From: a virus
Lineage: Duplodnaviria > Caudoviricetes
Length of the DNA stretch: 58,499 nucleotides
IMG/VR virus record: IMGVR_UViG_3300046011_001509
Location: 1-58,499 of that record
Strand: one strand, 5' to 3'
Program-made: the position numbers and the translations under genes
The notes under the pieces: model-generated
Seen by the model: only the letters and a program-made list of their open reading frames with translations
Database searches by the model: none
Told to the model about the DNA's origin: nothing
Part shown: positions 8,534 through 44,460 of the stretch, in pieces
Layout of the letters: every line of letters starts with the position of its first letter
Position numbering within the stretch: position 1 is the stretch's first letter

Positions 8534-9195
8534 AAACTACACTCAACAAAATCCGCGAGCATTTACCCTACTCCGACGGCTGGGCCAAACTACTCAAGGA
8601 CTTGGGCAAGACCGAAGCCGATGATGAGCCTCTACTTATCACAACCCTCTTAGACAACAACGGGCTGGATGATGCCCTGTGGTGCCTACGTGCCGTAGAC
8701 GGGCACCAGCGCGAAATGCGTCTGTACGCTGTGGACTGCGCTCGCAGTGTTCAGCACTTGATGACTGACGCGAGAAGCGTCGCAGCTATCGACGTTGCTG
8801 AACGCTATGCAAACGGCCTTGCTACCGAATCCGAGCTGACCGCAGCATGGACCGCAGCATGGGCCGCAGCAGGGGATGCAGCAAGGGACGCAGCAGGGAC
8901 CGCAACATGGGCCGCAGCAAGGGCCGCAACAAGGGCCGCCGCAAGGACCGCAGCAAGGGCCGCCGCAAGGACCGCCGCAAGGACCGCAGCAAGGGCCGCC
9001 GCAAGGACCGCCGCAAGGACCGCAGCAAGGGCCGCCGCAAGGACCGCAGCAGGGGCCGCAGCATGGGCCGCAGCAGGGGGTGCAGCAAGGGACGCAGCAT
9101 GGGCCGCAGCAGGGTACGCTGCAATGGAAATCCAAGCTGACTTATTGCGGATTGTTTGTGCAGAGATTGAGCAGGGAGAGCACCATGCTGACTAG
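8530..9195 (+). CDS. Imm5-like domain protein with Ala-rich tetrapeptide repeats
   Basis: GLDDALWCL...RLYAVDCARSV...AIDVAERYANG then (AAR/W-A/T/D)n. Confidence 0.75.
   Translation: MKTTLNKIREHLPYSDGWAKLLKDLGKTEADDEPLLITTLLDNNGLDDALWCLRAVDGHQREMRLYAVDCARSVQHLMTDARSVAAIDVAERYANGLATESELTAAWTAAWAAAGDAARDAAGTATWAAARAATRAAARTAARAAARTAARTAARAAARTAARTAARAAARTAAGAAAWAAAGGAARDAAWAAAGYAAMEIQADLLRIVCAEIEQGEHHAD
8840..9123 (+). repeat. Degenerate 12-bp tandem repeat (GCCGCAAGGACC-like)
   Basis: Roughly 23 units visible; opens all frames and creates shadow ORFs. Confidence 0.9.
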
Positions 9196-9769
9196 AGAAG
9201 AAGTTGTGAAGCTGGCAATGAAAGCCGGGTTTAGGCATCCAGTGCGTAGTGATGGCTACATGGGTACGGCTTTCGACTACCGAGATGGAAACGACAGCGG
9301 TGCAAGCCTTGAAGTGTTTGCCAAGGAAGTTTGGCAAGCCGCCCTCGCGCAGAAGGAATCAGATTGGAACCGCTTTCACCATGTCATGCACAAACATGGG
9401 CTGCACCCCGGACGTACTGACGATGACTTGATTGATATTCTGGATAAGGCTTTGTCTCCACGTACCGCGATGCAGAAGGAAGCGCATCGTCTTCCCGACG
9501 CCAGGGAACCGATAGAGCCTATCGGTGAAGTACAACTAATCCAGACAGGTGTGCATGACGAAGCACAAGTACGGTTCCACATGTACGGCAGCATCCCAGC
9601 ACTTGGAACAAAGCTCTATACCACCCCACCCAACCACACCGCCGTGCTGAAGATGGCGTTGGAGGCGCTTGCAACCGCACAAGAGGCACTCCCACCTTAC
9701 GGAGCCATTCGTAGGGAGCTTGATGCTGCCATCGCCGCGATTCGTGCAACCTTGGGAGAAACGAAATGA
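9185..9769 (+). CDS. Hypothetical mosaic phage protein
   Basis: MLTREEVVKLAMKAGF...GTKLYTTP...ALEAL; SD GGAGAG. Confidence 0.7.
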   Translation: MLTREEVVKLAMKAGFRHPVRSDGYMGTAFDYRDGNDSGASLEVFAKEVWQAALAQKESDWNRFHHVMHKHGLHPGRTDDDLIDILDKALSPRTAMQKEAHRLPDAREPIEPIGEVQLIQTGVHDEAQVRFHMYGSIPALGTKLYTTPPNHTAVLKMALEALATAQEALPPYGAIRRELDAAIAAIRATLGETK

Positions 9770-10038
9770 CTAACAAGGTAAGACTCTGGTATCCAGAACT
9801 TGAAGATTTCGCGCATGAGCTTCTTGGTTTGCCTGATAACTTCGATGGTGAAGTTACTGAGGTGTTGGAAGAACATTTTGATTGTGACTTTGACACGTTC
9901 ACTAAGATCATTGAAGCCGTTATTCAGTACACACCTACGCATATTTCGCCGCTGACAAAACGGTTACATCGTGGATTCATTAAGGACGGTCACTTCATCC
10001 TGAAGTACGAAGTAAAGGAGCAACACCATGAGCGTTGA
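9766..10038 (+). CDS. Hypothetical protein
   Basis: Coupled ORF. Confidence 0.65.
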   Translation: MTNKVRLWYPELEDFAHELLGLPDNFDGEVTEVLEEHFDCDFDTFTKIIEAVIQYTPTHISPLTKRLHRGFIKDGHFILKYEVKEQHHER

Positions 10039-12589: not shown

Positions 12590-12850
12590 ATGCGGTTTGC
12601 CATAGTGATTACCCTTGCCCTGCTTGGCTGCTCAAAGGAGACGCCAAAATCTAATGCGCTCAACGTTGAGCGCATTGCGCCAGAGCCGCAGCGCACACTT
12701 CAAGTGGGAACCAACCAACTCATCTCGGTACAAATCCCCGGACAAGAGTGGCACTCCACCCAGAAGTGCTACATCTTCCGCGACTTGGAGTTCAAGACAT
12801 CCAGCATAAGCTGCCCAGCCGGGGCTACTGGGAAGATCGAACCGGACTAG
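12590..12850 (+). CDS. Small lipoprotein
   Basis: MRFAIVITLALLGC lipobox; beside attP. Confidence 0.75.
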   Translation: MRFAIVITLALLGCSKETPKSNALNVERIAPEPQRTLQVGTNQLISVQIPGQEWHSTQKCYIFRDLEFKTSSISCPAGATGKIEPD

Positions 12851-15800
12851 CTTTTGCGCTTCAGCTTCGACTCCTTCTTGTACCAATCGGTATTGAAGTC
12901 TTCAGCCATCTTCTCCCGCTTCTTCTGAACCATCCGGCGCTTGAGTTCCTTCTCCTTGTCGGTTGAGTTGCTCTCAGCGATCTTGACCTCTTCCTTCTTA
13001 AGGTCACCCATCATTTCGCTAATGTTCTCGGCGTAAGCCCCCATTCCTTGTAGGAACTTCTTCTCGTCTGAGTACTTGGGCTGGATGCCTATCTTGGCTT
13101 GCGCCTTCATGTCAGCGAACTCTTTCTTCGCTTCCTTGGAGCGGTCATAGAACAGGCTCATCCCAGACTTGGAGTCGTACTCGCCATAGAACGCCTTGTA
13201 GATTGGGATGTCTCTGGTGTTTATTGGCGCATCGATTGCTCCCAAGTACCCAAGGTTGATCACATCTCCGACAAACCTACCAAGCCCACCGCCAACAATC
13301 CCCTCAAGGTTTTTGATCGTGCCGGGTTCAATGTCAACCGCACCCTTTAGAGCCATGTTCCCACCAGACACGCTATTGAGCCACCTTGCTATGCGATGCT
13401 CCACTCGACCATGATTTGTGGCAGAGACAGTTTCAGAGTCAGGCTTCTGGTCGTATGGTGACTTCTCTGGCCCAAGCTTCCTTCCGAACCCGTCAACACC
13501 CTCTCGGATTTGGTACTCAGCATCCAGTATCGTCGGCCTCCATGCTAGTGCTGCCTGATGCTCATCCCGTGGATCGAACGACCCGCCAGCAGGGTTGTAT
13601 GACCCAGCCGTGGCACTCAGCATGTTGATTGCAACCTTAACAGCGCCAACGCCTCGCGCAGGGTCTTTGACGTTCCTTGCGAGGTCAGCCAACTGATACC
13701 CCAGCACAGGGAACACGTTTAGTCCATACGCCATTGGGAACTTCATGTACCTTCCATGTGTGCCAACCTTCTCTCCAATGTCTGCACCCGGTGTCAGCAT
13801 GATGATTAGGTTCCGCTCTTTCTCAAAGTCCGGTATCTTGTCCCAGTAAGCCTGACCGTCTTCGTCATCTCCACCCACTGAAGCAGCCCACAGAGCCAGT
13901 CCCATACCGACTGACGCCATGCCAGCCATTGCGTAGCGGACCTTCGGGTTCTTTGCCATCTGGTAGATTCGCACGGAACCCTGCACCGATGCGTTGTAGA
14001 ACAGGAAGGCTGTGTTGATAAGCTGCCCCTGTTCGCCAAACCTATTGAAGTTCACCGTCAGATTCTTTGCAATCGAAGCGGCTTGAGCCGGAGTCTTGCC
14101 CATCTCTCGGGCAGTCGCATAAGCCGCCAGACGCGCAGTATTCTCCGACATTGACCCAACCAACTCCAGCCCGTGAAGAAGCTTCCCAGTAGCCCACCAA
14201 GCCGTGGTCTTCCTAGCCCTCTCCCCTGCGGCTGTAGCATAGTGATCTAGTTTGTTAATGACCCCGCTCTTGTTTGACGCATCAAATGATATGGGTGCTG
14301 CTCCAGCTTGCAACATGGCGTCACGAAGCTCCTGTCGTATAGACGCATGGTCGCGCATGAACACGCCACCCGTGGTCCCACCAGCAAAGCGCATCTCACG
14401 CATCCACTTGTCCATTGGGTGAGCTTGTGGGTCAGAGGTGTTCCTCTCAACTCGCCAAGACGCAACACCAGCAGCACCATAGTTCGCTGTGTATCTACGC
14501 AAGCCCTCTGCTCCAAGCTCGTCAAAGATTGCAGCCGCGCCCATCTGAGCGTCCCGTGCCGCATTGACCAATCCGAACACAGGGTTGTAGCGGGTAATCG
14601 TATTGCGAAGCAGTGATGTGTACACGCCAAGCGTCTTGGTCATCATCATCTCTGCATCACTTGTCTCTGCCTTGAACGTGTTCTGCATGGCGCGAAGCAG
14701 CAGCGGGTCATTGATCTTGATGTAGACCTGTTCACCACCAACCTTCACAGAGATGGTTTCGTCACCCTTGTCGAGTGTGTCAACGTACTCAATCAACCCG
14801 TTCACCTTGCGGGTGGCGCGGGTCATTGGCTGCACTTCCCATAGATTTGCATCTGGGTTCGATGTCACCAAGTCGAGGAACGTCTTGCCTACAGCGTTGC
14901 GCTCTGCGCGAATTGTGATGCGCTCGTAGTCACGGATGATGTTCTCAATGATGTCGCCAGCCTTGGAGTCACGGCCCATCGCTGCGATGGTTTCTTTGCC
15001 CTTGGTGTTGAATCCCCTGCCGAGTCCGGGGCGCACACTACCGCTGTCAGGATCGACATCTTCAAAGCCGCGCAACGGAACGTAGTTCTCGTACTGGCTC
15101 TCCAACCCATCGTACTGGTCTTGCGTAATCAAGCCCTCATCCAGCATCAGCCTGCGGGTTGTGGATGTGATTGCCAGAAGGTCCGCATGCAACTCTTCAA
15201 ACTTTGCTGCGTCTTGCGATAGTTCCACCAGTTGGATGATGTTGTCAGCTTCGGCGTCACTCATTCCAGAGCCAGTCTTCACATGCTGGTTCGTCTTCTG
15301 GATGTGAGCGTTGCGCTCTTTGGCATGTTTTGCATAGGCATAGGCAGCAAGCTCATTCAAGTCAACCTTGTACTCCACAGCCTTATTGATCAGCGGGTGG
15401 ACTACGTTGTCAGCAAAGTCTCGCAGAACCTCATGGACCCGCCCGTGCATGCGCTCTTCAGCGCGATACACATCCTGCTCTTCGCCAACCACTCCACCAC
15501 CCTCTAGCAGCAAGTCCTGCACCATCTTGACACGGTTGTACTTGTCCTGCATCACGCGCTGAATCGCTTGGCCCTTTGACTCTTCTGGAAGTCCTTGTGC
15601 TGCTGGGTATCCTTTGCGTTTAAACATTGGCACATCGACCACGCCAGACTTCTCGAACGCTGCTACCCTAGACTGCTTCAAGATATGTGCAATGTCAGCC
15701 ATATCGAGTTTCGCAAGCTGCATAAATCCGTTGTCACGCAGCCAAGACTTGATTGCACCGACAACCTCTAGCGCAAATTGCCTCAATGATCCCGTTTCAT

Positions 15801-18800
15801 TTTCCGCTATGTGCGAAAGAACTTCCTCCATAAGCCAAGCTCGGCGAATCTCACTTTGCCCTCCTGCCGCACGGTTCATGTGTTGGCTTGTAGTGATGTT
15901 GTTGGCAAAGTTCACATAGCCGTTGGTATCCAGCTTGTATTTCTGAACCAAATAAGCTATCTTCGACTCGCCAAGAGACAGCGATAGTTTGTTTAGGCGC
16001 TTGTATATCTCTGGCCCGAACAAGGCTCTAAGGCCAATGTGCCCATAAAGCTCATGGATTACAGTGGATTCAAAGTCTTCAGCAGAATGGATATTATCTT
16101 GAACGATATAAACATCACCCCTACCGAAAGTAATGCCCATGTCTCCGGGGCTAGAGACTTGCTGCACATTGACAGGCAAGTCCCCGTGAGTCTTGACAAG
16201 GTGGATGGTGTTGCCGGAACCAAGCAGACTCTGGTTGAGCTTCCCGATGAAGGCGGCTTCCTGCCCTGCCGTTATTTTGGTAGAGACTCCGCCAAGACTG
16301 GTGATTGAGCGCTTGTAGCCCGTCAGCCCTTCTTCGGAGTCCCGTACACCCGGTTCATTACTTCCTTGTCCTGCTGCGCCGTCGTTGGCTTCTGAAGTTG
16401 CAGCTTCATTCGCTCCATCGCTGCCTTCGCTTTCGGACTCAGAGACTCCTGCGCTGTTGCGCCATCCGTCGAAGATTTGTGGGTCAACATAATGTTCTTT
16501 CGTGGTCGCTAGGGTATCCCCTATTTTAGTCGCTGCTGCCTGTAAAGCCAAGTCAACATAGGCTTTGAACTCCGCTTCGTTGGTAGGCTGTGGCATGCCA
16601 TCCACAACCAGTTGCGCAGACTTCGTGGCCTGCCAAGTCCTGAAGTCATGCACCTTATATTTCTTGCCGCCATCCAGTGAATCCTTGTACTTGCGTACTG
16701 CGCGGTCTGCGGTTTTGAACAATGATTCTCCACCCATGCGCTTGGATATATCCTTTGCGATGTCGGCATTCTTAATGCTGTGACGTTGCTGTACGCCAGA
16801 CTTTCCAATGAAGTCAAACTGCGCCACATCTCCAGTCACCTTCACATGCTCTGGCCTTAGAGTGGACGCGCCGTAGGTAGGACCAGACTTGCTCATGCCG
16901 CCGCCAATGCGGAAGCCTGTGTGTGCGATCAGACGTAGGACCACGGCCTCTTCCTTGCCTGCTGTAGCGTCACGCTCAATCTGCGTCAACAGCGAGTCGC
17001 GGTCATTGTGGAAGTCGCGCATGCGCTTGAACTTCTCCACCAGCGCAGCGGCTTTCTGCTCCTTGGTGTAGCCCTTCTCTGCAACACCTTCGACATCCTC
17101 AACTGCAAGAACGTCAATGCGCTTGCGTGCGTAGGCGATTGGCTTGGCAAACTCATTGACTTCATTGGCATCAACCTTGCCCATGATGATTCCGTTCGTC
17201 ATCACGGCCCGGGCCAAAGTTGATTCACCTATCCCTGTGCCACGATTCTTTGGATCATTCAACCAACGCTGAATTCCCTTGGTTACATCCTTGCCAGACG
17301 AATCGGTGAACACTCCAGTCTCAGGGTCCAATGAAAGACGGGTCAAGCCAATCATTGTCGGGCTGTCGTTCTCGTCAATCCACTGGCTAGTGGATGGCTT
17401 GTAGGTAGCCTTGTGACTTCCATTCTCAGTAGTCGTTGTGTCGGGCAACACCTCCATCACATTACGCATATTGGCAATTGCCAAGCGCGATATGTTCATC
17501 AGATGCTCTTCTGGTGTTGATGCGTTTTCATCAAACCCATAGATGCGGTTCTGCTGTCCGGGGAGCAGGGTCGTTGAGTCACCCGTCTTGATGGCGAACG
17601 AGAATGATTGCTCAGTCCTGCGGAACGTGTTAACTGCTGAGATATTGGTATCGCAGTAAAACTTTTCCTTCTGGTTCTTTGCCCACTGACCAATCACTGC
17701 ATACACGGCGGTGCCAACGCGACTTCCTTTAAGGCCCATTGTGTTCACAGCAAATCCGTCGTCATCTGACAACTCGGAGAAGTGCGTTACCGCCAAGTAA
17801 TTGTGATTGGTTGATTTATCAATGAAGCGTATCGTTGCGTCACGAATGTTGGTGCTATCCACTGACACGGAGTACCCGTTGAATGCATCCAAATCTTTGC
17901 CTATTTGCGTGAAGTCAGTGGACGTGCTGGTCTTGTACTTGAAAGCATTCTTTGCCTTTGCCAGTTCAAGCCACGCCTTCGCTATCTTCAGGTTCGTGCC
18001 TTTCTTGTAGGCTGATGCAATGTCGTACCCCGAGTCGTGAATAAACCCGCGAACCAAGTGCGCCTTAAACAAGTTGATAGCAACGTTCTTGGTGTAGTTT
18101 GAACCATTGTCAAACCATCCAGCCGCTGCGCTTACCTTGTACTGGTCATCGCCAACCTTGGTTATTGTCGAGTGAGGGTAGGCTGCATTCGGATTCATTC
18201 CGACTGAACTGCCAACAGAGTCACCGTTAAAGTCCGGGTTTCCAAACGTGTGTGCGAATGCGCGTTCTGGGAATATGCCGTGCTGCGCCATGCTCTCTTT
18301 GGTAACAGCTTTTGGGCCTTGCGGGTTGTCGATCCTTCTGGCCCTATTCACCATCCGTTGACGGAACGCAGCCTCATCAGCAAGAGCGGAAAGTGCGTCA
18401 TCATCTGGAGAAGTGAAGTCCAAGTCTCCTATGTCTTCCTTGTCTAGCTCTTCAACCTCTATGGCGTCTAGGTTGAAATTTCCAAGGTCGCCAGTCGTGT
18501 CTTCATCGTAAACAAAGTCGTCCACCGATTTGGTGCGGCGTTTGTAGGATGGCATTTCAATTGAGTGCTTGCCAAGCAGCACGGCGAAGTCTTGATTCGC
18601 TGCCTTGTCCATGAAGTAGCCATCAAAGCCAGCATTCTTGACAAAATTCTCAAACTTGGTTTGACGCTCTTGCTCTGTTGCGCCAGTGGACATGCGGCCA
18701 AAACCCTTGTGATCTTTGGACACATCGTACAAATTGTTAAGCTTGATGATGTGCTTCACACCACCCACACCCGCTTCAGGCGTTACCCCATTGCCCCTGT

Positions 18801-21800
18801 CCACATAGAAGTAAAGGCGGTCTTTGATGTAGCCGCTTGATTGAGCGCGGTCACGCTCTGCGCCATTGAGACCGGAGCCGTGGAACTGGCTGCTGAGTAT
18901 CTTCCGGCGCTGCTGGCTGAAGTGAACTCCAACCTTGGCTACCGATCCTTCTCTGGCAACTCCGTAGTCGCGTTCGGCTTCTGCTGAAGACTGCGTAGCG
19001 TCTGCGAGAGCGCGTTCCTGAACTCTTGATCTTGTGCGTCCAGCGCTGCTATTGTCGATCCAGTCTTGTCGCTTACCAATAGATTCTCTTGCGAGTTTTC
19101 TGAGTTGAACGAGGTGATCCCTTTTCTCACTCCGAAGAATGGTCCGTCCTTCACTGGATCGTGTTTGCTCCGAATTACCTTTGCCATACTTGCCTTCTTT
19201 CAAATAGTCGCCACGGTTATCTGACCAAATCAACTCACTCTCATAGCGCTCAATCTCTTTGATATCCAATGCTGCGCCATCCCATTCAAGAGACTCAACT
19301 GCACTCACAATTCCAGCTTCAAACTCCTCATCACTCAGCCTTGACTCACCATTGAATGCTGTGAAGTTTCCAAACACCAACTCACTCGGCTTTGTTTGTG
19401 TGTTTGCGTCAGCGCGTGGGAACTTTTCGTGAATCAGATCGCGCAGTTCTTGTAGCTTACTGCTAGGGAACCCTTCAGGCAAGATCACCTTGATAAATGA
19501 GTTCTGATTACCACCGCTGGTGTTGCCCTCATCAAACACAACCATTGATTGCTGGTCGAGGATGTAGCCAAGCTCACGGGCTACATCGTTCAACTGGTCT
19601 TGAGTTGCGCTCTCTGGCGCGTCAATGATGAAGTTCGGATTCGTCTTTCCTTGGTACTGACCAGTGGACATATCAATGTCCCAGCCACGAAGACCGTGCA
19701 TATCCATCAAACTTCTGAATAGCTTTTGCGCTACGTTGCGATTGGCCGCAGCCTTCTCGCTCCACTCTTGCGCATCCCATTCCTGCGCCGTGCTTTCTCG
19801 CCTGCGCATCAACTTTTCCTTGTCACTCATTAAAGAGTAGTCTCTGGAAATCTTCTTGCCACCAAGCAATATTTCTTCGCCGGACTGGTCTTGCTCGTAC
19901 CCCCTGTCGACCGGGTGCGGAGCAACCTCACCGATTACACCCTTGCGGCTGTAGTCGGGATCATCCACCACTGAATCGCTGATAGTCCCGTCACGGCGAA
20001 GCTCAACAATCGCATCGCGCAGAACCATCTTGGCTTTGGTCAGGTCCGCAACATACTGGTCTACCGCTTTGGACTTGGCATTACCTTTGCCACCACGCAG
20101 TTCAGCGATCAGATCGTTAATGGTTTGCAGCCACTTGCTTGCCCATTGCTGGAAGTTCTTGGGGTCAGCTTTCGCAAGAGACTTGATGAACTCACGGTCT
20201 GTGGCGCGGTTGCCAACAAAGTCAGCCATCATCTCCTTGCGCGTCTCAGCCTTGTCAAGATAGCCCTTCGCGGCTTCCATCCTCAACGCACTGAGCTTGG
20301 CTTTCTGCGACACCGACCAATACTTCTGTGGCATCGGGTTACCCTTGCCGTCCTTGATCGAATCCGTGTAAGCGACTATCTCTGGAGAGGCGTTAATCCT
20401 GTCTGACGCAAGGAAGTTGGCGATGTAATCCAGCTTGCCTTTCTCCCCCATTGAGTCGTAGATTGCATCGACCTTGGAGATGTACTTCTGCGCGGGTGTG
20501 TTTGTCTTGCCGTCGCGTGTGTCAGCTTCGGCTTGCGCCTGCATGACGTGGTGGGTTTCATGCCACCCAGTTGTCAGTGCATTGGAGGTGAGTCCCTTGG
20601 TGTTGATGTAGACCTTGCCATCAAGCTGGATGCCATTGACTGAGTCAGGGCTTGGGTCACTGAATGCAACCACTTCAGCGGTAACGCCAAACAGCGCCTT
20701 CGCCTGCTGCATAGCAGCTTGAATCTGTGAGTCAGCCTTTGCATCTGGCGCTCCCAGAGTTATCTTCGGGTTGGTCGCCGGGTCTTTGGCGTTCCAGTGG
20801 TCTAGGACTTTTTGGGCTGACTCTCTGCTGGCAACGGCTGCTTGTTGAACAGACTGTTGTACGCTTGATCCCGCTGTGTTACCCACAACTGGAACTCCTG
20901 CGGCGACAGTGTTCGTCGCATTTCCTGTTCCTTGGCTTGCTCCAGTAGCGCTGTTCCGCACTGCCTCTGATTCATTTGCAACCTCCGTTGATTGTGGAAC
21001 CCGAGATAGTAAATCCGAATCACTGGTCCGCGCAATCGGGTTCGTTACTGTCGTTGCATTTGCTCCACTGGCTGGTTGACGTGGTTCACCCACAGCAGCA
21101 GCCGCAAGTCCTCCCGTGTCGGTTCCCACTCCATTTCCAGTCGCAGTTGCATCGACCACGCCTGTCGTGGCGTCAGCGCTCCCGCTTGGTAGGCTGACTG
21201 GATCGGTTGGTAGAACTCCAGTTGTGTTGCCATTAAGTACGCCTTCGATGTTTGCAGTTGCGGCTTGGATTGCCGGGTCAGCTTGCGCTTCACCGACTTG
21301 AGCTACGCCCCCCACAGACGCTTCAAACGCAGCGATGGCTGTGCTGGTATCAGGCGCGGAACTTATCGCAGCCGTGGCCCTATCCTGCCTCTGCTCTGGG
21401 CTATTGGCAAGGTTTGGATTCAGCGTTGTAGGCACATAGCGCTCTGGCTCTTTGCGTGACTCGCTGAGTGCAGCAACTCCTGCAAACGGACCGCTCGTCA
21501 ACGTTGCAGTAGCCATTGCCTCTGCAACACCCTCATCCCACTTCCTGCTCGGGTCAATGGTTTGTATTTGCTTGTTAGCGATGACGTTTGACGAACCTTC
21601 GTCAATGTTCTCGCCAGCCAATTCTTTGGCAACAATCTTGGCGAAACCTTGCTTCTCGGCAGTTTTACCAGCAGCCTTCGCTAGACCTGATGCAACCATT
21701 GCCGCTTCAGCGCCGCCATAACCAAACGCCATACCAATGGGGGCAGCTATCAGAGCAGCCATCCTTGCCTTGGTAGTGGCGATCTCTTTCCTTGCCTCAA

Positions 21801-22827
21801 GAGGGTCCATCCCCTTGTTGTCAACCAAGTCACGATAGTCTGGGTTCGCATCCATTAACGACTGTTTCGCCGCCATGACACCGTCATAGGTTGAACCAGC
21901 AGCGTCACCCGCTGACATACCGCCAGCCGCTGACATACCGCCAATCGTCCCGCCAAGCTTTGATGCCGTGCTGGCAATAGCTCCGCCAGACACAGCCTCT
22001 CCAAGCGCCAAGGTAGGGGATGCCCTGCCAGCAAGACCAACCGCTCCAGCCGCAGTTCCAGCCACAAGCTTAGATGCGCCAAGAATGCCGATGAAGTTTG
22101 GTATTTGCTTGATGCCCTCTTGTATTCCAAGAGAGGGGTTCGCCACAAGTGATGTCAATGTTTCAACATACTTGCCAAAGAAACCATCCTCTTCATCGAT
22201 ACGCTTACGCATGAGTGCGCGTTGCGCCTTTACTGTCTCAGACTCCTCGCCAGCAAAGTCTGCCTGTACTGCGCGGAAAGTATCTGCCAGCATGCTGCCG
22301 GGAGCGATGATGTTGGTTGGCAACTGTGCAAGCGATAAGGTTCCTTGCTTTAGCGCAGCAACTGAATCTCCAGCCCACTCACCAATACTGCGGAACTCAT
22401 CTGCCTTGGCTTTCAGAAGTGTGCCGTCATCTCCTGAGTCGTTGGCTTTTCTGGACGCATCAACCCCTCCAGCCAAAACCTTTGCGCCCCTAGCCGTAGA
22501 CCTGTCCGCAATGTCAGTCGCATTGGCTTTGGTGAACATGACAGACTGCGGACTCTTGCTTCGATTACGCGCTTCGCGGTTAGCAGCGAGGTCAACGTCA
22601 TCAGTCATTCCAGCAGGAGCCTCCATCGTCACATCCTGAAGAACGCTCTCCTTCTTTGGCGTACTTGCGCCAGTGGCAAAGTTACGCACGGAGTTCATAG
22701 CGCTGCCGACCATATCCATCATGGATGGCTCTGGAATCGCCTCAACTGCTTTAGCCTCTGGTGCGTCTGGCAAGTCGTCAAACAAGCCACTATGCGTCAC
22801 TGGCAAGTCATCAAATAGTCCAGCCAT
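12847..22827 (-). CDS. 3326-aa polyvalent (LPD38-type) internal virion protein with two HExxH peptidases, ART-like, GNAT-like and topoisomerase IB core domains
   Basis: Last gene of the late operon after ejection proteins; WHETHH, IHELYGHIG, TGFRIG/FIGKSG/HDFRTW/HYVDP, C-terminal NLTVNFNRFG...FLFYNASVQG...YWDKIPDFEKERNLII LPD38-like region. Confidence 0.85.
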   Translation of the reverse strand: MAGLFDDLPVTHSGLFDDLPDAPEAKAVEAIPEPSMMDMVGSAMNSVRNFATGASTPKKESVLQDVTMEAPAGMTDDVDLAANREARNRSKSPQSVMFTKANATDIADRSTARGAKVLAGGVDASRKANDSGDDGTLLKAKADEFRSIGEWAGDSVAALKQGTLSLAQLPTNIIAPGSMLADTFRAVQADFAGEESETVKAQRALMRKRIDEEDGFFGKYVETLTSLVANPSLGIQEGIKQIPNFIGILGASKLVAGTAAGAVGLAGRASPTLALGEAVSGGAIASTASKLGGTIGGMSAAGGMSAGDAAGSTYDGVMAAKQSLMDANPDYRDLVDNKGMDPLEARKEIATTKARMAALIAAPIGMAFGYGGAEAAMVASGLAKAAGKTAEKQGFAKIVAKELAGENIDEGSSNVIANKQIQTIDPSRKWDEGVAEAMATATLTSGPFAGVAALSESRKEPERYVPTTLNPNLANSPEQRQDRATAAISSAPDTSTAIAAFEASVGGVAQVGEAQADPAIQAATANIEGVLNGNTTGVLPTDPVSLPSGSADATTGVVDATATGNGVGTDTGGLAAAAVGEPRQPASGANATTVTNPIARTSDSDLLSRVPQSTEVANESEAVRNSATGASQGTGNATNTVAAGVPVVGNTAGSSVQQSVQQAAVASRESAQKVLDHWNAKDPATNPKITLGAPDAKADSQIQAAMQQAKALFGVTAEVVAFSDPSPDSVNGIQLDGKVYINTKGLTSNALTTGWHETHHVMQAQAEADTRDGKTNTPAQKYISKVDAIYDSMGEKGKLDYIANFLASDRINASPEIVAYTDSIKDGKGNPMPQKYWSVSQKAKLSALRMEAAKGYLDKAETRKEMMADFVGNRATDREFIKSLAKADPKNFQQWASKWLQTINDLIAELRGGKGNAKSKAVDQYVADLTKAKMVLRDAIVELRRDGTISDSVVDDPDYSRKGVIGEVAPHPVDRGYEQDQSGEEILLGGKKISRDYSLMSDKEKLMRRRESTAQEWDAQEWSEKAAANRNVAQKLFRSLMDMHGLRGWDIDMSTGQYQGKTNPNFIIDAPESATQDQLNDVARELGYILDQQSMVVFDEGNTSGGNQNSFIKVILPEGFPSSKLQELRDLIHEKFPRADANTQTKPSELVFGNFTAFNGESRLSDEEFEAGIVSAVESLEWDGAALDIKEIERYESELIWSDNRGDYLKEGKYGKGNSEQTRSSEGRTILRSEKRDHLVQLRKLARESIGKRQDWIDNSSAGRTRSRVQERALADATQSSAEAERDYGVAREGSVAKVGVHFSQQRRKILSSQFHGSGLNGAERDRAQSSGYIKDRLYFYVDRGNGVTPEAGVGGVKHIIKLNNLYDVSKDHKGFGRMSTGATEQERQTKFENFVKNAGFDGYFMDKAANQDFAVLLGKHSIEMPSYKRRTKSVDDFVYDEDTTGDLGNFNLDAIEVEELDKEDIGDLDFTSPDDDALSALADEAAFRQRMVNRARRIDNPQGPKAVTKESMAQHGIFPERAFAHTFGNPDFNGDSVGSSVGMNPNAAYPHSTITKVGDDQYKVSAAAGWFDNGSNYTKNVAINLFKAHLVRGFIHDSGYDIASAYKKGTNLKIAKAWLELAKAKNAFKYKTSTSTDFTQIGKDLDAFNGYSVSVDSTNIRDATIRFIDKSTNHNYLAVTHFSELSDDDGFAVNTMGLKGSRVGTAVYAVIGQWAKNQKEKFYCDTNISAVNTFRRTEQSFSFAIKTGDSTTLLPGQQNRIYGFDENASTPEEHLMNISRLAIANMRNVMEVLPDTTTTENGSHKATYKPSTSQWIDENDSPTMIGLTRLSLDPETGVFTDSSGKDVTKGIQRWLNDPKNRGTGIGESTLARAVMTNGIIMGKVDANEVNEFAKPIAYARKRIDVLAVEDVEGVAEKGYTKEQKAAALVEKFKRMRDFHNDRDSLLTQIERDATAGKEEAVVLRLIAHTGFRIGGGMSKSGPTYGASTLRPEHVKVTGDVAQFDFIGKSGVQQRHSIKNADIAKDISKRMGGESLFKTADRAVRKYKDSLDGGKKYKVHDFRTWQATKSAQLVVDGMPQPTNEAEFKAYVDLALQAAATKIGDTLATTKEHYVDPQIFDGWRNSAGVSESESEGSDGANEAATSEANDGAAGQGSNEPGVRDSEEGLTGYKRSITSLGGVSTKITAGQEAAFIGKLNQSLLGSGNTIHLVKTHGDLPVNVQQVSSPGDMGITFGRGDVYIVQDNIHSAEDFESTVIHELYGHIGLRALFGPEIYKRLNKLSLSLGESKIAYLVQKYKLDTNGYVNFANNITTSQHMNRAAGGQSEIRRAWLMEEVLSHIAENETGSLRQFALEVVGAIKSWLRDNGFMQLAKLDMADIAHILKQSRVAAFEKSGVVDVPMFKRKGYPAAQGLPEESKGQAIQRVMQDKYNRVKMVQDLLLEGGGVVGEEQDVYRAEERMHGRVHEVLRDFADNVVHPLINKAVEYKVDLNELAAYAYAKHAKERNAHIQKTNQHVKTGSGMSDAEADNIIQLVELSQDAAKFEELHADLLAITSTTRRLMLDEGLITQDQYDGLESQYENYVPLRGFEDVDPDSGSVRPGLGRGFNTKGKETIAAMGRDSKAGDIIENIIRDYERITIRAERNAVGKTFLDLVTSNPDANLWEVQPMTRATRKVNGLIEYVDTLDKGDETISVKVGGEQVYIKINDPLLLRAMQNTFKAETSDAEMMMTKTLGVYTSLLRNTITRYNPVFGLVNAARDAQMGAAAIFDELGAEGLRRYTANYGAAGVASWRVERNTSDPQAHPMDKWMREMRFAGGTTGGVFMRDHASIRQELRDAMLQAGAAPISFDASNKSGVINKLDHYATAAGERARKTTAWWATGKLLHGLELVGSMSENTARLAAYATAREMGKTPAQAASIAKNLTVNFNRFGEQGQLINTAFLFYNASVQGSVRIYQMAKNPKVRYAMAGMASVGMGLALWAASVGGDDEDGQAYWDKIPDFEKERNLIIMLTPGADIGEKVGTHGRYMKFPMAYGLNVFPVLGYQLADLARNVKDPARGVGAVKVAINMLSATAGSYNPAGGSFDPRDEHQAALAWRPTILDAEYQIREGVDGFGRKLGPEKSPYDQKPDSETVSATNHGRVEHRIARWLNSVSGGNMALKGAVDIEPGTIKNLEGIVGGGLGRFVGDVINLGYLGAIDAPINTRDIPIYKAFYGEYDSKSGMSLFYDRSKEAKKEFADMKAQAKIGIQPKYSDEKKFLQGMGAYAENISEMMGDLKKEEVKIAESNSTDKEKELKRRMVQKKREKMAEDFNTDWYKKESKLKRKS

Positions 22828-24340: not shown

Positions 24341-25076
24341 TGCCGTTCCTTTGTGCGTAGGTGTTTGGTACTTGCGTTGCATACCCTTTGATCAATCCGG
24401 GGATGGTGTACGCAGCGCGGAGCTTTTCTTCCTTGGCGCGTTCAGCCTCTTCAGCAGCAGCTCCCTTGAAGTAGCCACCAGCCAAGTCGCCAGCCATCTT
24501 GACGCCCTGCATTTGGACCAATGGGTTAGACATCATCTTGCCAATCAATCCTGCGGGTGCTGCTGGCGCTGCCGCTGGTGTTGCCAAAATATTTGCCAAT
24601 TCAGTTGGAGCGGCGTACCCAGCGTTAATCAACCCGCCAGTCTGTGTTGCGGCAGTAGATGCTCCACCAGCCACGGCTTCTCCGGCAGCGTATGTTTGAG
24701 CGCCAAAGTCAGCAGCAGCGCCAGCAGCACCACCGCCAGCCGTTGCCAGCCCTGCTCCAGCCACTTCACCACCGAACCCAGATGCAATAGCCGAGCCTGC
24801 CGCGCTAAACTCCCCGGCTAGTAGCGAAGTCCCCGCCGACATAAGACTGGACCCGGCAGCGCTCATTCCAGAGATTCCCCCTGAGATGGCACCCCCGATC
24901 CCGCTACCAGCGGCTGAACCCATAGCTCCTGAGATGAAGGCACCGCCGAAGTAGATGGCAGCAGCGCCAATGACAGCTTTGCCTATGCCGCTACTCGCAA
25001 CGTCTTTGACGGCTTTTACAACACCATTGACGACTGAGCCAACAGCGTCGAATACTCCAGTTACAACTTGCGACAT
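24330..25076 (-). CDS. Gly/Ala-rich DNA ejection (pilot-like) protein
   Basis: Hydrophobic Gly/Ala N-terminus typical of podovirus ejection proteins; follows a GNAT gene. Confidence 0.65.
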   Translation of the reverse strand: MSQVVTGVFDAVGSVVNGVVKAVKDVASSGIGKAVIGAAAIYFGGAFISGAMGSAAGSGIGGAISGGISGMSAAGSSLMSAGTSLLAGEFSAAGSAIASGFGGEVAGAGLATAGGGAAGAAADFGAQTYAAGEAVAGGASTAATQTGGLINAGYAAPTELANILATPAAAPAAPAGLIGKMMSNPLVQMQGVKMAGDLAGGYFKGAAAEEAERAKEEKLRAAYTIPGLIKGYATQVPNTYAQRNGNAG

Positions 25077-25513
25077 TAAAGCCCCCTACAGAAAGTGAGT
25101 GATTGCGTCTGAAGCCCAAAGCCCAGTCGCTGTAAAAGTTTTGCCAGTCTCGGATCGGCATCCGGTTCCAAGCTGAAGATTGCCAGCTTGATTGATGGTC
25201 GGCTCTTGACCCACCGCGCGTACTCTCGCAGCAGTTCAATTCCAAGGCCGGGTGTTTTTGTGTAGAACATGCAGACGCTTGATTGCTGTCGCTCAAACCA
25301 GAAGCCGTTTCCAGTCTTGGCAGCAACACAAGCTTTGACGACACCATCAACCTCTCCAACCCACACAAAGTCTGCGCTGCATGAGATGCCTTGTGTCAGC
25401 ATGTTCACCATGCTTTGGCGATTAATCTTGAGTGGGAGTGGATTCCGAGACACCGATTCCACTGCAAGCTCAACGATTGCAGGGATATCGGAGGGTTTGG
25501 CTTTGCGGATCAA
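25076..25513 (-). CDS. GNAT-family acetyltransferase
   Basis: MIRKAKPSDIPAIVEL...FVWVGEVDG...PGLGIELL...LLQRLGF. Confidence 0.75.
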   Translation of the reverse strand: MIRKAKPSDIPAIVELAVESVSRNPLPLKINRQSMVNMLTQGISCSADFVWVGEVDGVVKACVAAKTGNGFWFERQQSSVCMFYTKTPGLGIELLREYARWVKSRPSIKLAIFSLEPDADPRLAKLLQRLGFGLQTQSLTFCRGL

Positions 25514-27023: not shown

Positions 27024-27530
27024 TTACTTGACAGGTGCAGAATTAGCCAGCATTTCGCTCTTGCGTTGACTGCCGCTTGAACTGCCAAGCCAGAAGTTCA
27101 CCACTGCGCCAAAGGCCGCGCCCAGCGCACCCAGCATGATGAGAAGTGGCTCAGTGGGCTTGTATTCCCAGACCAGCATCGTGATTAGGATGGAGAAGAA
27201 CCCAACAGTGATGAATGTGGACAACGTGGCTGGGAAGTAGCTCTTCGTCTGCTTCTGCATGTCCCGTGCATCTTGCGTGTTCTTGAATTCAAGTTCAGCG
27301 TAGCGGAACCCGCGCTCCTTTTCGTCGTTCTGGTATTTGAGTTCAAGCTGCTTGATGGCAGTCAACTGGTCAGGCGTCATCCGACCATCTTGGAAGACCT
27401 TTGACACTTGCTCAGTCGTGGCGCCATCAATGCCGAAAATCTTGCCCAGCGCGGCAACAGCTACGCCGCCCAACGGACCCATGATTGCGCTTGCCAGAGT
27501 AGGGGCAAGACCTGCCAGAAAGTCGTTCAT
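27024..27530 (-). CDS. Holin (3TM, GTA-type)
   Basis: LAPTLASAIMGPLGG...two C-terminal TMs...VVNFWLGSSSGS; next to the endolysin. Confidence 0.75.
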   Translation of the reverse strand: MNDFLAGLAPTLASAIMGPLGGVAVAALGKIFGIDGATTEQVSKVFQDGRMTPDQLTAIKQLELKYQNDEKERGFRYAELEFKNTQDARDMQKQTKSYFPATLSTFITVGFFSILITMLVWEYKPTEPLLIMLGALGAAFGAVVNFWLGSSSGSQRKSEMLANSAPVK

Positions 27531-28042
27531 GCGTAGCTCCTTGTTCCGAGTTGATCGATTACTAATGCCTGCTGTCTGTTGTTGTCGCTGAAGCTGATGT
27601 GTACCCAGCCACCGTTGACAGAGTTGGGGAATTCCAGAATGCATTGGTCGTATTCAAGACCGTTGCCGTGGTGAACGAGTAGCTTGACGATCTGTGCTGG
27701 TGTGCCGTAGTTCGACGTGAAGTCAACCGCTTGCCCTTTGACGTGCGACTTGGTTAACAGATAGTCAGACCACGATTGCGGGTTGACTTCCATTTCACGG
27801 CGCTTGCACCACGCGCGGTATGCTGAGTCACACAGCACACGCTCCAGTGCGGGGCTTCGGTAACCGCTTGAAATGTGGATGGCATTGTTATTCAACAACT
27901 GCCGCACTCGCTCCAATCCATTTGCAGTCCTCTTGAGGTTGAAGACGACATCAAGTGGTGGGTCGTTGTCGATTGACAGTCTTACAGCGGTGTCGCTTCT
28001 CGACATCTCCTGTAGAGAAAAGTGAGGTGATAGCTGTGTCAT
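27527..28042 (-). CDS. Endolysin, peptidase M15A (D-Ala-D-Ala carboxypeptidase-like)
   Basis: LSPHFSLQEM...ISSGYRS...SHVKGQAVDF...WVHISF. Confidence 0.9.
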   Translation of the reverse strand: MTQLSPHFSLQEMSRSDTAVRLSIDNDPPLDVVFNLKRTANGLERVRQLLNNNAIHISSGYRSPALERVLCDSAYRAWCKRREMEVNPQSWSDYLLTKSHVKGQAVDFTSNYGTPAQIVKLLVHHGNGLEYDQCILEFPNSVNGGWVHISFSDNNRQQALVIDQLGTRSYA

Positions 28043-28386
28043 TTTGCTGGCCCATGCAGGAACTGTTGCCAGAGTGCGTACGCTGCCCAGCCCAAGAATC
28101 CAATCAGCCCCCAGCGAGCAATCTCGAAAACCATCTTTTGCCAAAACACTGCCCTCGCTTCCGCTTGCCGAATCACAAGTTCGTGGTGGCGGCGATGCCC
28201 AGACGGGTCGCCCTCCGGGAAAGCATCTGTCATAAGGCGCGTGATTGCTTGCGCAAGCTCATCAGTTTCGTTGGTCATGTGGTGCGTGAGCTTCGCGTCG
28301 AGCGCCAGTTGGTTGTCGTGTATCTGTTTAATGATCTCAAGCATCTCTTGTGAAGTCGCTCGGCGGTCAATACTTGCTGCGGTCAT
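28039..28386 (-). CDS. Membrane protein in the lysis cassette
   Basis: C-terminal TM (WGLIGFLGWAAYALW). Confidence 0.6.
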   Translation of the reverse strand: MTAASIDRRATSQEMLEIIKQIHDNQLALDAKLTHHMTNETDELAQAITRLMTDAFPEGDPSGHRRHHELVIRQAEARAVFWQKMVFEIARWGLIGFLGWAAYALWQQFLHGPAK

Positions 28387-41747: not shown

Positions 41748-43190
41748 TTATTCCCAGTAACCGCCAATAGAGATTACAAAGGTGATTGCTCCGGTAGTCG
41801 TTACAGTGCCGATATTTCGCGCAACAATGTCAACGAATTCACCGGGGCGTACCACAATTGGTACATCGAGATTCAAGTCAACCACCCCGCCGAGTGTGCC
41901 AACAGCAGCGGTTGCCGCATAGCTTTGCATACCGATTTGCATAACTCGTGGTGCGTGGGTTGTAGCTGTCGCGAACGATGCTGTTTCACCTGTTGCCAAT
42001 GTTGTTGCAGTGTGCCCAACTGCCAAGGCAAGAGCGTAGATAACAGGTCCACCCGCCAAGATCACAGATACAGCGCCATTTAGCGTTACCCGGGTGATAT
42101 ACAGGTTGCGCCCTGTGATGTTGATTGACGGTACAGGGTTTTGATACGTAATCAGCTTACCGTCATTGTTTGCAGTGAGTGTCGGCAGTACAGCAACGAT
42201 TCCACCCAAACCAGTAAACGCCGCAGCAGTGTTTGTCAGTGCTACCGCTGTAGGTGCGGTGTTGTTTGTCCAGAGGGTTGTCTTTCCTTGTGTGTGCCCA
42301 TTCTGCCCAAACAGAGCGTGCTGCCCCATGCCTGCTACCTGATGTGCCCAAGGCTTGCTTGTTGCAAGGTCCATCAGGCTAACAGTAACGTCTGTCAATC
42401 GGATAACGTTGGTGTTTGCTACGACACCTGTGCAAAGTTTCTGCATAAACACCGGGAGAGAACCTTGCATAAACGGTTGCCCGTAGGCAACTGGGATAGC
42501 GATCTCTCCATACAACACATCGTTCACCCAAAACTCGATCTCCTCCTCGCCAACCACCATCGCAAACCGTGAGTTTGTAGCAAGCGGTATCTGAGTAGCC
42601 ATTAAGGTAACTTGGACAACCGTGTTGTTGTTGTACTGCAATTCACCGTACAGGCCAGTTGCATTCATCTTGAACCAGCAACCGTCAGTAGGAGCAACGC
42701 CACCAGCACTAGGCAATCCCAATCCTGCGTAAAACACCTCATTGGCAACCATTGACGCCGTGTTGCTTGCGCCTGAAAACTCCACCGATAGCGGTGCAGT
42801 GCCAATCAGCGGGAAGTATTGAAATGATCGAACAAACGCACCGTGAGCATTGGCCGTACCTTGTACCGTGCCAAATTGCAGATAACCACCCGGCTGAGTG
42901 CAAGTCAAAGTAGCAGCCGTATAGCTCCATAACGTTGTGTTTTGTGTAGTGGCGTTAAAGGTATCAGTGAGCAATACCGTATCAACACCTACCCGCAATC
43001 GGAAATCTGGTGAAGTCTCTGGGCTTTTTAGATACGGATCGCCAGTGATAGAACCATCGTCGTTTTCACTAAACAAGCGAACACCACCTACACCCGCAGG
43101 AGCAGCAGAAGCATCACCTGTGAAAACAGGCACACCGTTTGCCGTTGTAGCTATGTCTGTGCCATTTTTACCAATGATTGAAATGCTCAT
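41748..43190 (-). CDS. Beta-rich structural protein, possibly lectin/ConA-like
   Basis: 480-aa Thr/Gly-rich ORF; IEFWVNDVLYG resembles a LamG-type strand. Confidence 0.6.
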   Translation of the reverse strand: MSISIIGKNGTDIATTANGVPVFTGDASAAPAGVGGVRLFSENDDGSITGDPYLKSPETSPDFRLRVGVDTVLLTDTFNATTQNTTLWSYTAATLTCTQPGGYLQFGTVQGTANAHGAFVRSFQYFPLIGTAPLSVEFSGASNTASMVANEVFYAGLGLPSAGGVAPTDGCWFKMNATGLYGELQYNNNTVVQVTLMATQIPLATNSRFAMVVGEEEIEFWVNDVLYGEIAIPVAYGQPFMQGSLPVFMQKLCTGVVANTNVIRLTDVTVSLMDLATSKPWAHQVAGMGQHALFGQNGHTQGKTTLWTNNTAPTAVALTNTAAAFTGLGGIVAVLPTLTANNDGKLITYQNPVPSINITGRNLYITRVTLNGAVSVILAGGPVIYALALAVGHTATTLATGETASFATATTHAPRVMQIGMQSYAATAAVGTLGGVVDLNLDVPIVVRPGEFVDIVARNIGTVTTTGAITFVISIGGYWE

Positions 43191-43453
43191 GCGTAGACCC
43201 ACCCAATGTTATATATACCGTGCGCGAAACCTGTCCTGCACTTGGCGTAAATAGTGAAGCCAACACCGCTATTAGCAGGCCCGGCAATCACCACCAAATC
43301 CTCTACCCAATGGTTATCCAAAGTGTTTGAAGCAGTGTCGGCAGGAATAATCCATGCCTCTACCTTTTCAGCCAAAATAGAAGGCTCAGACACCGCAACT
43401 GATGCGTCAGTCTTGCCCGTACCAAAATCAACCGTTGTTGTGCCAGTTGCCAT
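43187..43453 (-). CDS. Small structural protein
   Basis: MATGTTTVDFG...GVGFTIYA. Confidence 0.65.
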   Translation of the reverse strand: MATGTTTVDFGTGKTDASVAVSEPSILAEKVEAWIIPADTASNTLDNHWVEDLVVIAGPANSGVGFTIYAKCRTGFAHGIYNIGWVYA

Positions 43454-44460
43454 CAAGCGCTCTCCAATTCAACACTTAACGCACCAGAGGTTATTGCGGC
43501 AATCTCGCCACTCGTGAGCGCGATGCTGTACTCTGTGTCCGATGCTGTCAGAACCTGTGTCTGCTCCCGCACCGTTGTAACGCCCTGCTTCAGTCTCACG
43601 ATGACTGAGTTTCCTGTGCTGGATGACGCGCGGTACTTCAGCACTTGGCTCGTTGGACTGCCGGGGTAGATCGTGGTGTTCATACCCATCTCGCATACCT
43701 GACCAACAGCGTTGCTGCTGATGTAGTCCAGTGGATCAGGGGTTACCTCGTCAACCATCGGGTACAAGTCTGTACCAGTGCTTGGAACCCAGCCACCGGG
43801 GCTGATATCGCTATTGGGTCGTGCAATAGTCTCTGTGTCAGCCGTGCGCGTAACTGTCGGTGCCCAGCCGTCGATGGTGAACACACCAAAGCCGGGGACG
43901 ACAACCTGATTCGCAGTCTGCTGAACCGTTGGTGCGTAGCCGTTGATCGTGAGGTTGCCAACAGCAGGAGCGACGATTGCCTCTTGCGTGACCGTTGGTG
44001 CATAGCCTTGGATGCTGACACTACCAACACCCGCTGTGACTGACTGGTTAGCAGTCTGTGTGACCGTAGGCTCATTGCCTGTGATCGTGATGCTGCCAAC
44101 GCCGGGTTGGATGGTGCCTGATGCGGACTGATCAACCGTGGGCGCGTAGCCAACAATGGTGACGTTACCAACGCCAGCGGTGACTGCTTGATTCGCGGTC
44201 TGAGCAACCGTTGGGGCTTGACCCGTGATAGTGACACTGCCGCCCCCTGCCGTGACTGCTTGATTCGCTGTCTGCTGAACAGTCGGTGCGTTACCTGTGA
44301 TCGTTACATTGCCGACACCCGCAGTAATCGCTTGGTTTGCAGTCTGCTGAACGGTGGGCGCATTGCCGACCAGAGTGAGACTTCCAACGCCTGCAGTAAC
44401 GGACTGATTTGCAGTCACGCTTGAGGTTGAATACTCCCACGCTCCAATGTCATAGGCCAT
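43453..44460 (-). CDS. Repeat-rich structural protein, probably the C-terminal half of a fusion with 44464-45378
   Basis: About eight 24-aa repeats; begins MAYDIGAWEY in frame with the upstream ORF. Confidence 0.65.
   Translation of the reverse strand: MAYDIGAWEYSTSSVTANQSVTAGVGSLTLVGNAPTVQQTANQAITAGVGNVTITGNAPTVQQTANQAVTAGGGSVTITGQAPTVAQTANQAVTAGVGNVTIVGYAPTVDQSASGTIQPGVGSITITGNEPTVTQTANQSVTAGVGSVSIQGYAPTVTQEAIVAPAVGNLTINGYAPTVQQTANQVVVPGFGVFTIDGWAPTVTRTADTETIARPNSDISPGGWVPSTGTDLYPMVDEVTPDPLDYISSNAVGQVCEMGMNTTIYPGSPTSQVLKYRASSSTGNSVIVRLKQGVTTVREQTQVLTASDTEYSIALTSGEIAAITSGALSVELESA

Follow-up and report, generated by a model that had tools for sequence, protein, structure and literature searches.

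Short recurring peptides mark module borders in a giant polyvalent phage protein and may serve as processing signals

We analyzed a 58,499-nucleotide sequence from a virus of the Caudoviricetes (Duplodnaviria; IMG/VR record IMGVR_UViG_3300046011_001509, positions 1 to 58,499; this whole stretch of DNA is hereafter called the window), in which positions 12847..22827 of the minus strand form a single open reading frame (ORF) that begins with ATG and encodes 3326 amino acids plus a stop. By its Pfam domain content, the product is a large polyvalent protein of the phage type, with LPD37, a type IB topoisomerase (TopIB) and LPD38 in one chain. Its modules are joined by five copies of a short peptide with the consensus P-x-[YFLM]-[SKA]-R-[KR] (residue-by-residue alignment with relatives), and these copies are the places of module exchange among relatives. 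It is plausible, though tentative, that the peptide is a processing signal cut by a peptidase built into the N-proximal part of the same chain; what we infer is that a cut is made, by which protease and when.

Results

All five peptides had been picked out, as markers of domain boundaries, in a first-pass annotation made from the sequence alone, and all are present in the ORF at most three bases from where they had been placed. They are J1, PDYSRK, at residues 957-962 (19942..19959, minus strand, as are all positions in the giant gene; previously about 19945-19960); J2, PSYKRR, at residues 1426-1431 (18535..18552, as before); J3, PIAYARKR, at residues 1896-1903 (17119..17142, previously one base off); J4, TGYKRS, at residues 2169-2174 (16306..16323, as before); and J5, PMFKRK, at residues 2400-2405 (15613..15630, as before). 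The five copies are regularly spaced, and their basic residues adjoin acidic spacers. Chance occurrence was estimated from 2000 shuffles of the giant protein; the resulting ratios are generous because the patterns were written after the motifs had been seen. The pattern P.{1,2}[YFW].R[KRS] was observed four times against a shuffle mean of 0.16 (about 25-fold), a count reached by none of the 2000 shuffles, while [YF][KSA]R[KRS] was observed five times (mean 0.51; fraction of shuffles reaching five, 0.0005) and the loose form [YFW].R[KRS] seven times (mean 2.30; fraction 0.0075). Across all six-frame open stretches of at least 80 residues in the window, [YF][SKAG]R[KR] occurs nine times: five matches fall in the giant ORF (four junctions plus FGRK at residue 3114) and the other four in short frames, with none in the portal, capsid or other recognized virion genes of the window. 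At the nucleotide level the junctions have in common only a Tyr/Phe codon and a CGC codon, and conservation therefore acts on the peptide, not on the DNA. A DNA-level recombination site was considered and rejected because no extended nucleotide sequence is common to the junctions.

The position of the peptides relative to module borders was examined in 53 giant proteins (2596-5196 residues) retrieved as relatives by a word-index search. BLASTP of the giant protein against these relatives gave 101 high-scoring segment pairs, and 82 of their 167 internal endpoints lay at most 12 residues from a motif, the five together accounting for 4.6% of the length; as the proteins compared are related and not independent, a binomial P value for this clustering would not be meaningful. 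Segment starts clustered at residues 956, 2159-2163 and 2395-2413, and ends at 1425-1433 and 1899-1905. The other 85 endpoints fell at borders without a motif (about residues 620-638, 1010-1017, 1288-1295 and 2205-2234) or within the C-terminal module. The motifs thus stand at module borders, as had been proposed, and comparison of homologs for domain swaps gave the expected picture: the peptide is kept and the neighboring modules are exchanged. In one relative (P0003), LPD37 (residues 1597-1825) is followed by PVAYSRK, an ART-PolyVal domain (residues 1885-2061) and then ...NPDIRYSRK, and in the giant protein of the window (P0001 in the same set) TopIB and the next module, E, occupy the place of that ART-PolyVal domain. 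Pfam Topoisom_I was precomputed for 2 of the 53 relatives. At J1, relatives carry P-S-L-S-R-K, P-S-M-S-R-K, P-A-F-S-R-K or A-Y-K-R-K, always followed by GV.GEVAP. The linker had been described as aromatic-x-R; a recurring linker containing R is borne out, whereas the aromatic position is really a hydrophobic one that also accepts L and M. The domain types that end in the motif are unrelated to one another (peptidase, the B2 domain described below, LPD37, TopIB, module E and ART-PolyVal).

ART-PolyVal cassettes were found at 15 loci (18 rows, 12 of them distinct), and all end in ...QIKSA.GN.G.(F/Y)...(D/S)I..(S/A).., most often as NPDIR[FYM]S followed by R, A or N. At one locus (L012, positions 8894-9403 and 9422-10018) two such cassettes stand in tandem, separated by the ART ending. 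Each of these tandem copies starts with WFGDSEVVD and ends with NPDIR[FY]S.R, and the two are 6 residues apart.

Two AlphaFold2 models covered J1, J2, J4 and J5: model 1 comprised residues 661-1500 (18-row alignment; mean predicted local distance difference test [pLDDT] 62.2) and model 2 residues 2150-3326 (24-row alignment from locus references; mean pLDDT 71.7; predicted template modeling score 0.66). The topoisomerase module and J3 were left out, as were alignments of the window segment with full-length relatives, which misaligned the variable modules D and E. All four modeled junctions were assigned to coil by DSSP, in 10-residue blocks with mean pLDDT of 24-66. J1 (model 1 residues 297-302; blocks 45 and 66) is predicted to lie in coil between the end of a helix at 285 and a short strand at 302-306, with pLDDT below 50 at residues 292-299 and 309-335. 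J4 (model 2 residues 20-25; blocks 25 and 24) falls within a predicted disordered N-terminal stretch (1-38), and J5 (model 2 residues 251-256; blocks 44 and 36) in a disordered linker (242-260) between module E and the well-modeled module F. J2 (model 1 residues 766-771; blocks 29-32) is inside a long low-confidence stretch (736-822), a placement that says little because the preceding domain is also poorly modeled. The four modeled junctions are thus in low-confidence coil and not inside folded domains. Neither model had a Foldseek match in the PDB at E ≤ 0.001, and the VIA-align matches of model 1 came mainly from a generic ferredoxin-like part.

The candidate peptidase, module A2 (residues 661-956; 19960..20847, minus strand), immediately precedes J1. 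It carries HETHH at residues 756-760 (20548-20562; the WHETHH of the first-pass annotation is residues 755-760), the single HExxH of the giant protein, and EMMAD at residues 865-869 (20221-20235), 105 residues after HETHH. His756, Glu757, His760 and Glu865 (in E-M-x-A-D, extending to Asp869) were invariant in 8 of 8 aligned sequences, giving an HExxH with a downstream Glu ligand; in a set of 18 sequences, the H and E of HExxH were invariant and the second H nearly so. In model 1 the module consists of strands followed by a helix that bears the HExxH. By this HExxH plus ExxAD signature, A2 is predicted to be a gluzincin-like metallopeptidase, and from its conserved residues it looks active. The protein had been described as bracketed by two HExxH peptidases; HETHH is a true HExxH, whereas the second motif, HELYGH, is an HExxxH in a module (E, see below) that has no Pfam or PDB match.

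Searching 1.84 billion cluster representatives with a profile of A2 gave 243 proteins at E ≤ 0.001, of which 72 reached E ≤ 1e-30; in nearly all cases the protein is very long and the domain is 600-1300 residues from its start. Gibbs sampling without a prior pattern was applied to the 60 residues that follow the domain in 48 representatives (clustered at 50% identity); it arrived at P-x-[MFAL]-S-[KRL]-[RK], mostly at sites 11-23 residues after the domain (PVMSRR, PSMSKR, PSLSKR, PRFSIK, PAFSRA and PQFSLR, for example), with an information content of 8.73 bits against 6.84-7.46 bits in six shuffled sets. Across the peptidase family, the core [YF][SKAG]R[KR] was about 2- to 3.5-fold above shuffles in four E-value bins (33 versus 11.4, 31 versus 8.6, 24 versus 10.2 and 27 versus 12.7). 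Nearly all of the giant relatives have an HExxH at about residues 700-970, in several subtypes, and the motif-rich proteins include ones with a second subtype, HEVGH-TMQKSS. The mean motif count was 3.25 in proteins with an A2-type peptidase detected by BLAST (n = 16) and 1.05 in those without (n = 55), and 1.00 in those with module E (n = 11) against 1.65 in those without (n = 60). These groups largely coincide with clades of related rows, and the co-occurrence of A2 and motif is therefore weak evidence.

Between J1 and J5 lie four modules. Module B (residues 963-1425; 18553..19941, minus strand) has a ferredoxin-like part at about residues 1060-1197 and a conserved C-terminal domain, B2 (residues 1280-1425), with no assigned family and with invariant His, G-A-E, Y-F-Y and P-E residues. 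The SAMase-like and ART-like labels given to this module found no confirmation. The phage SAM lyase 6zm9_A ranked seventh among generic ferredoxin-like matches (Z 7.2; root mean square deviation 5.3; 112 aligned residues), within the range (Z below 8) in which VIA-align warns that a match may reflect a common arrangement only. No Pfam ART match was found in the giant protein at E ≤ 10, and hhalign of B2 against the ART-PolyVal cassettes aligned only 21 columns around AG[FY]DG (probability 58%); the ART-PolyVal (PF18760) matches in three relatives (P0003, P0005 and P0027) are at another module. Module C (residues 1432-1895; 17143..18534, minus strand) contains Pfam LPD37 at residues 1617-1879 (17191-17979; E = 4e-14, above cut-off). 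Its proposed likeness to GNAT could not be confirmed, resting as it does on a sub-threshold NCBIfam match to AAC(6')-Iz (E = 0.086; 13 bits against a cut-off of 320), and the family-wide profile A3 found no PDB match in the LPD37 region.

Module D (residues 1904-2168; 16324..17118, minus strand) is a TopIB core followed by an acidic low-complexity tail, and here the earlier assignment was correct: submitted alone, it matches Pfam Topoisom_I at residues 1925-2112 (E = 6.9e-19; 68.6 bits against a cut-off of 23.7). It also matches the Deinococcus radiodurans TopIB 2f4q over module residues 29-232 (E = 1.4e-14). Arg1973, Lys2009, Arg2063 and Tyr2113 (16489-16491) align with identical residues of 2f4q, and Asp2104 (16516-16518) stands at an Asn. 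We take the catalytic pentad of TopIB to be R, K, R, H/N and Y, the Tyr being the one aligned with Tyr2113; with Asp2104 in place, the activity of the embedded topoisomerase is uncertain. Module E (residues 2175-2399; 15631..16305, minus strand) is possibly zincin-like. Its H, E and H are invariant in 5 of 5 sequences at a spacing that differs by one residue, namely HELYGH in the window (residues 2258-2263; 16039-16056) and HEAYGH in L032 and L033, both HExxxH, with the canonical spacing (HEGTH) only in L034 and L036. The model of this module (pLDDT 40-68) has three strands and then a helix bearing the motif, with no Pfam or PDB match, and its HExxGH presumably recalls the motif of the DPP III family. 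PDB sequence and profile searches with A2, B and E, with profiles A6 and A7 and with the family-wide profile A3 returned nothing significant.

The chain closes with module F (residues 2406-3326; 12850..15612, minus strand), which is conserved, mostly helical and, as had been recognized, contains LPD38 (residues 2995-3209; 13201-13845; Pfam E = 8.5e-21, above cut-off). It matches PHROGs 14770, 616 and 10691 over about 900 residues and has no PDB fold match by Foldseek. The C-terminal 925 residues are homologous to the giant proteins of 933W-like and Bcep22-like phages, and module F also occurs in giant proteins of Vibrio phages. Alignment with the giant protein of 933W (and of many Stx phages) covers 98% of module F at about 30% identity, and that with the "DarB-like" protein of Bcep22 covers 89% at 27.5% identity. 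According to the text of the phi24B preprint, the LPD38 protein gp47 of that phage (2811 residues) is an abundant virion component by mass spectrometry and invisible in the reconstruction, and a 4515-residue homolog, gp69, is reported from virions by mass spectrometry in the JC1 paper. Because module F is homologous to the 933W and Bcep22 giants and the proteins of the phi24B and JC1 relatives were detected in virions, packaging of the giant protein in the virion is likely by homology. The authors of the phi24B preprint propose gp47 as an ejection protein with a role as conduit and in peptidoglycan degradation, not self-processing, and the same text leaves open how a chain of such size is arranged in the head.

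In nine relatives (L003, L005, L008, L010, L011, L013, L017, L028 and L045) the giant gene is split into two ORFs about 440-480 bases apart. The first ends in ...(D/E)INCK and the second opens with an N-C-x-Y-T-F mini-domain, followed by cargo or by module F; a peptide of the motif type (PMFSNR, AFYSKR or IAFSPR) precedes module F even where that module is a separate ORF. These natural splits were considered as support for cleavage and set aside, as the split point (...INCK) is not at the motif.

Other features of the window and of the giant protein were recorded alongside. The giant gene is the last of a block of late or virion genes on the minus strand, which encodes the small and large terminases (the latter at 48084-49358, further upstream than the ORF pair named below), portal, major head protein, an SU10-type adaptor, a tail fiber protein, an endolysin-like protein (27527-28144, minus strand; PHROG 894, E = 1.4e-25) and an acetyltransferase (25076-25513, minus strand; PHROG 1249, E = 1.6e-10). 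Between the portal gene and the adjacent ORF pair (43453-44460 and 44464-45378) is an ORF of 484 residues without a PHROG or Pfam match (41748-43202, minus strand), and beyond the giant gene, at the end of the block, an integrase gene lies on the opposite strand. The acetyltransferase and endolysin-like genes sit amid unannotated genes between the tail fiber gene and the giant gene, and their products may also be carried inside the virion. The different window ORFs scanned (29 with PHROGs, 20 with Pfam) included no recognizable prohead protease, and megablast of the giant gene against a phage collection gave no match.

The N-terminal module, A1 (residues 1-660; 20848..22827, minus strand), is partly conserved in relatives and has a hydrophobic Gly/Ala-rich stretch (Kyte-Doolittle window at residue 245) and a low-complexity tail. 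The heptapeptide GLFDDLP occurs twice at its N terminus, 4 residues apart (MAGLFDDLPVTHSGLFDDLPD; residues 3-20; 22768-22821), and might be a targeting or docking signal. Only two 19-residue windows of the giant protein have a Kyte-Doolittle mean of at least 1.5: residues 245-263 (22039-22095), in the Gly/Ala-rich N-terminal region, and residues 2966-2984 (13930-13986), in module F just before LPD38. These are possible membrane-active segments of an ejection protein.

Discussion

The reading that we favor, tentatively, runs as follows. The giant protein would be made late, be packaged in the head and leave it along with the DNA, and its layout would comprise a conserved A1 plus A2 peptidase, exchangeable cargo (B, LPD37, TopIB and module E) and the conserved helical module F, six segments joined by one short peptide in disordered linkers. 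The A2 gluzincin would cut at or beside the junction peptides, in cis at J1 first and then at the other junctions, giving six pieces of roughly 105, 52, 52, 30, 25 and 101 kDa (estimated at 110 Da per residue) and freeing the cargo modules inside the capsid or after ejection. As each cassette would carry its own copy of the signal, modules could be swapped in evolution without losing processing. The short fixed tether from the peptidase domain to J1 fits a cis substrate. Gluzincins of the thermolysin and neprilysin types favor a hydrophobic residue at P1', which fits a cut just before the conserved Y/F/L/M. A broader version, in which the giant virion proteins of a widespread podovirus group are true polyproteins and P-x-hydrophobic-S-[RK]-[RK] is a code read by one built-in gluzincin family, cut in the capsid or on entry, with cassettes that bring their own cut site, is possible but rather doubtful.

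Several observations weigh against processing by A2. The assignment of A2 as a peptidase is based on its motifs and a medium-confidence model; the module has no Pfam match and no PDB sequence or profile match, and its best peptidase by Foldseek was BepA (E of about 0.1). The signal in the wider family is also modest. The margin of the Gibbs site over the shuffled sets is about 1.3 bits, and the strict pattern P..[YFLMW].R[KR] is barely enriched across the peptidase family (12 versus 10.8, 17 versus 8.7, 14 versus 9.6 and 13 versus 9.8 in the four bins). The motif is not obligatory either: the strict pattern has no match in 21 of 54 relatives, P0004 and P0015 keep the HExxH with no core motif and degenerate junctions, and the 933W giant protein has four motifs where 3.8 are expected. 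No report of cleavage of the giant protein or of any relative was found in the literature covered, the gel figure and tables of the phi24B preprint aside, and the text of that preprint reports gp47 in virions and is silent on fragments. Iyer 2017 (PMC5512222) further describes, in its main text, the N4 virion RNA polymerase as packaged unprocessed and ArdC and TraC1 as transferred full length, all of which carry a metallopeptidase. A complex prediction with the A2 alignment, zinc and a 41-residue J5 peptide scored 0.05 against a mark of 0.32 and carries no weight either way.

With such intact proteins known to bear a metallopeptidase (Iyer 2017, PMC5512222), the motif could instead be a conserved joint that is never cut, a cap or spacer carried by every cassette that allows in-frame module exchange within one working chain, like the N4 virion RNA polymerase. 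That the motif always closes a cassette, as in the ART endings, that junctions in some relatives are degenerate and that fragments are nowhere reported in the literature covered are all in keeping with this. A neutral spacer, however, would not be expected to retain P-x-hydrophobic-S-R-K across relatives whose modules F are only 42-46% identical to that of the window, nor to be kept after six or more mutually unrelated domain types; recombination has no repeat in the DNA to act on, and the motif lies in predicted disorder and so probably outside any fold. On balance an uncut joint seems to us fairly unlikely.

Cleavage by some other protease is improbable. An R-[KR] pair is a classical dibasic cleavage site, and the enzyme could be a host dibasic-site protease met during ejection, an unrecognized phage head protease or module E, which keeps its invariant H-E...H. 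However, J4 closes with R-S, and R-A, R-S and N-R occur among relatives, so the dibasic pair is not the conserved core; the scanned ORFs yielded no prohead protease, neither the portal and capsid proteins nor the other virion proteins carry the motif, and motif counts do not follow module E. The chance is slimmer still that the peptides are docking sites whose basic patches attach to DNA, to the portal or to a chaperone for packaging or ejection and so organize the chain in the capsid. Such a role would suit the regular spacing of the five copies, their location in disordered linkers and their basic residues beside acidic spacers, and the text of the phi24B preprint leaves unanswered how a chain of this size is arranged in the head; but no partner has been identified, and the steady offset of 11-23 residues after the peptidase domain fits a cis substrate better.

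Processing by A2 can be set beside known systems. The T4 internal proteins and Alt are cut by the head protease at L/I-x-E. P1 DdrB and DarA are cited as processed virion proteins in Iyer 2017 (PMC5512222), and the T4 and P1 proteins resemble the scheme proposed here in being packed in the head, delivered with the DNA and trimmed at short consensus sites. They differ in that their enzyme is a head-maturation protease that also cuts capsid and scaffold, for which no counterpart was found in the scanned ORFs, whereas here the motif is restricted to a single protein, which itself contains the candidate protease. The giant LPD38 proteins of the podoviruses phi24B and 933W (gp47 and ST933Wp72) and of Bcep22 and JC1 (both "DarB-like") have the same place at the end of the structural module and, in 933W and Bcep22, align with module F, and they differ in their cargo modules; in the 933W protein, moreover, HExxH modules are found elsewhere in the chain, at residues 1297 and 1564, and the motif is not enriched.

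The closest precedent is the class of polyvalent proteins defined in Iyer 2017 (PMC5512222). As described in its main text, these proteins combine many unrelated enzymatic and LPD domains per chain, are encoded among late virion genes and are proposed to undergo autoproteolysis by a built-in zincin-like HExxH metallopeptidase that frees the domains, and LPD38 is listed as phage specific. The giant protein has the same character, with several unrelated domains including LPDs in one chain, together with further conserved modules without a family, and its placement in this class by the first-pass annotation is supported by the Pfam matches. The same annotation had called it the best candidate for a novel system; the class, the virion context and the idea of autoprocessing are already in Iyer 2017, and it is therefore not a novel system. 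No cleavage site or junction peptide is named in the main text of that paper, where "linker," "domain boundaries" and "low-complexity" occur 0 times; "topoisomerase" occurs there in a reference title only, and a TopIB cargo of a giant protein is thus not described. No paper on a junction or cleavage motif in polyvalent proteins was found in the literature covered, to which the supplementary alignments of Iyer 2017 and the tables of the phi24B preprint do not belong. What the giant protein adds to a known polyvalent class is a sharply defined junction peptide, with cleavage as its putative function.

Autoprocessing has been proposed since 2017 with no named site that we could find, and the junction peptide defines precisely which residues to mutate and what fragment sizes to expect. 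It also offers a working rule for where to divide such very large proteins into modules when annotating them or predicting their structures. A type IB topoisomerase delivered with the phage DNA would be an unusual cargo; if the proposed processing is true, the cargo, this enzyme included, would be released as separate enzymes and would evolve by cassette exchange.

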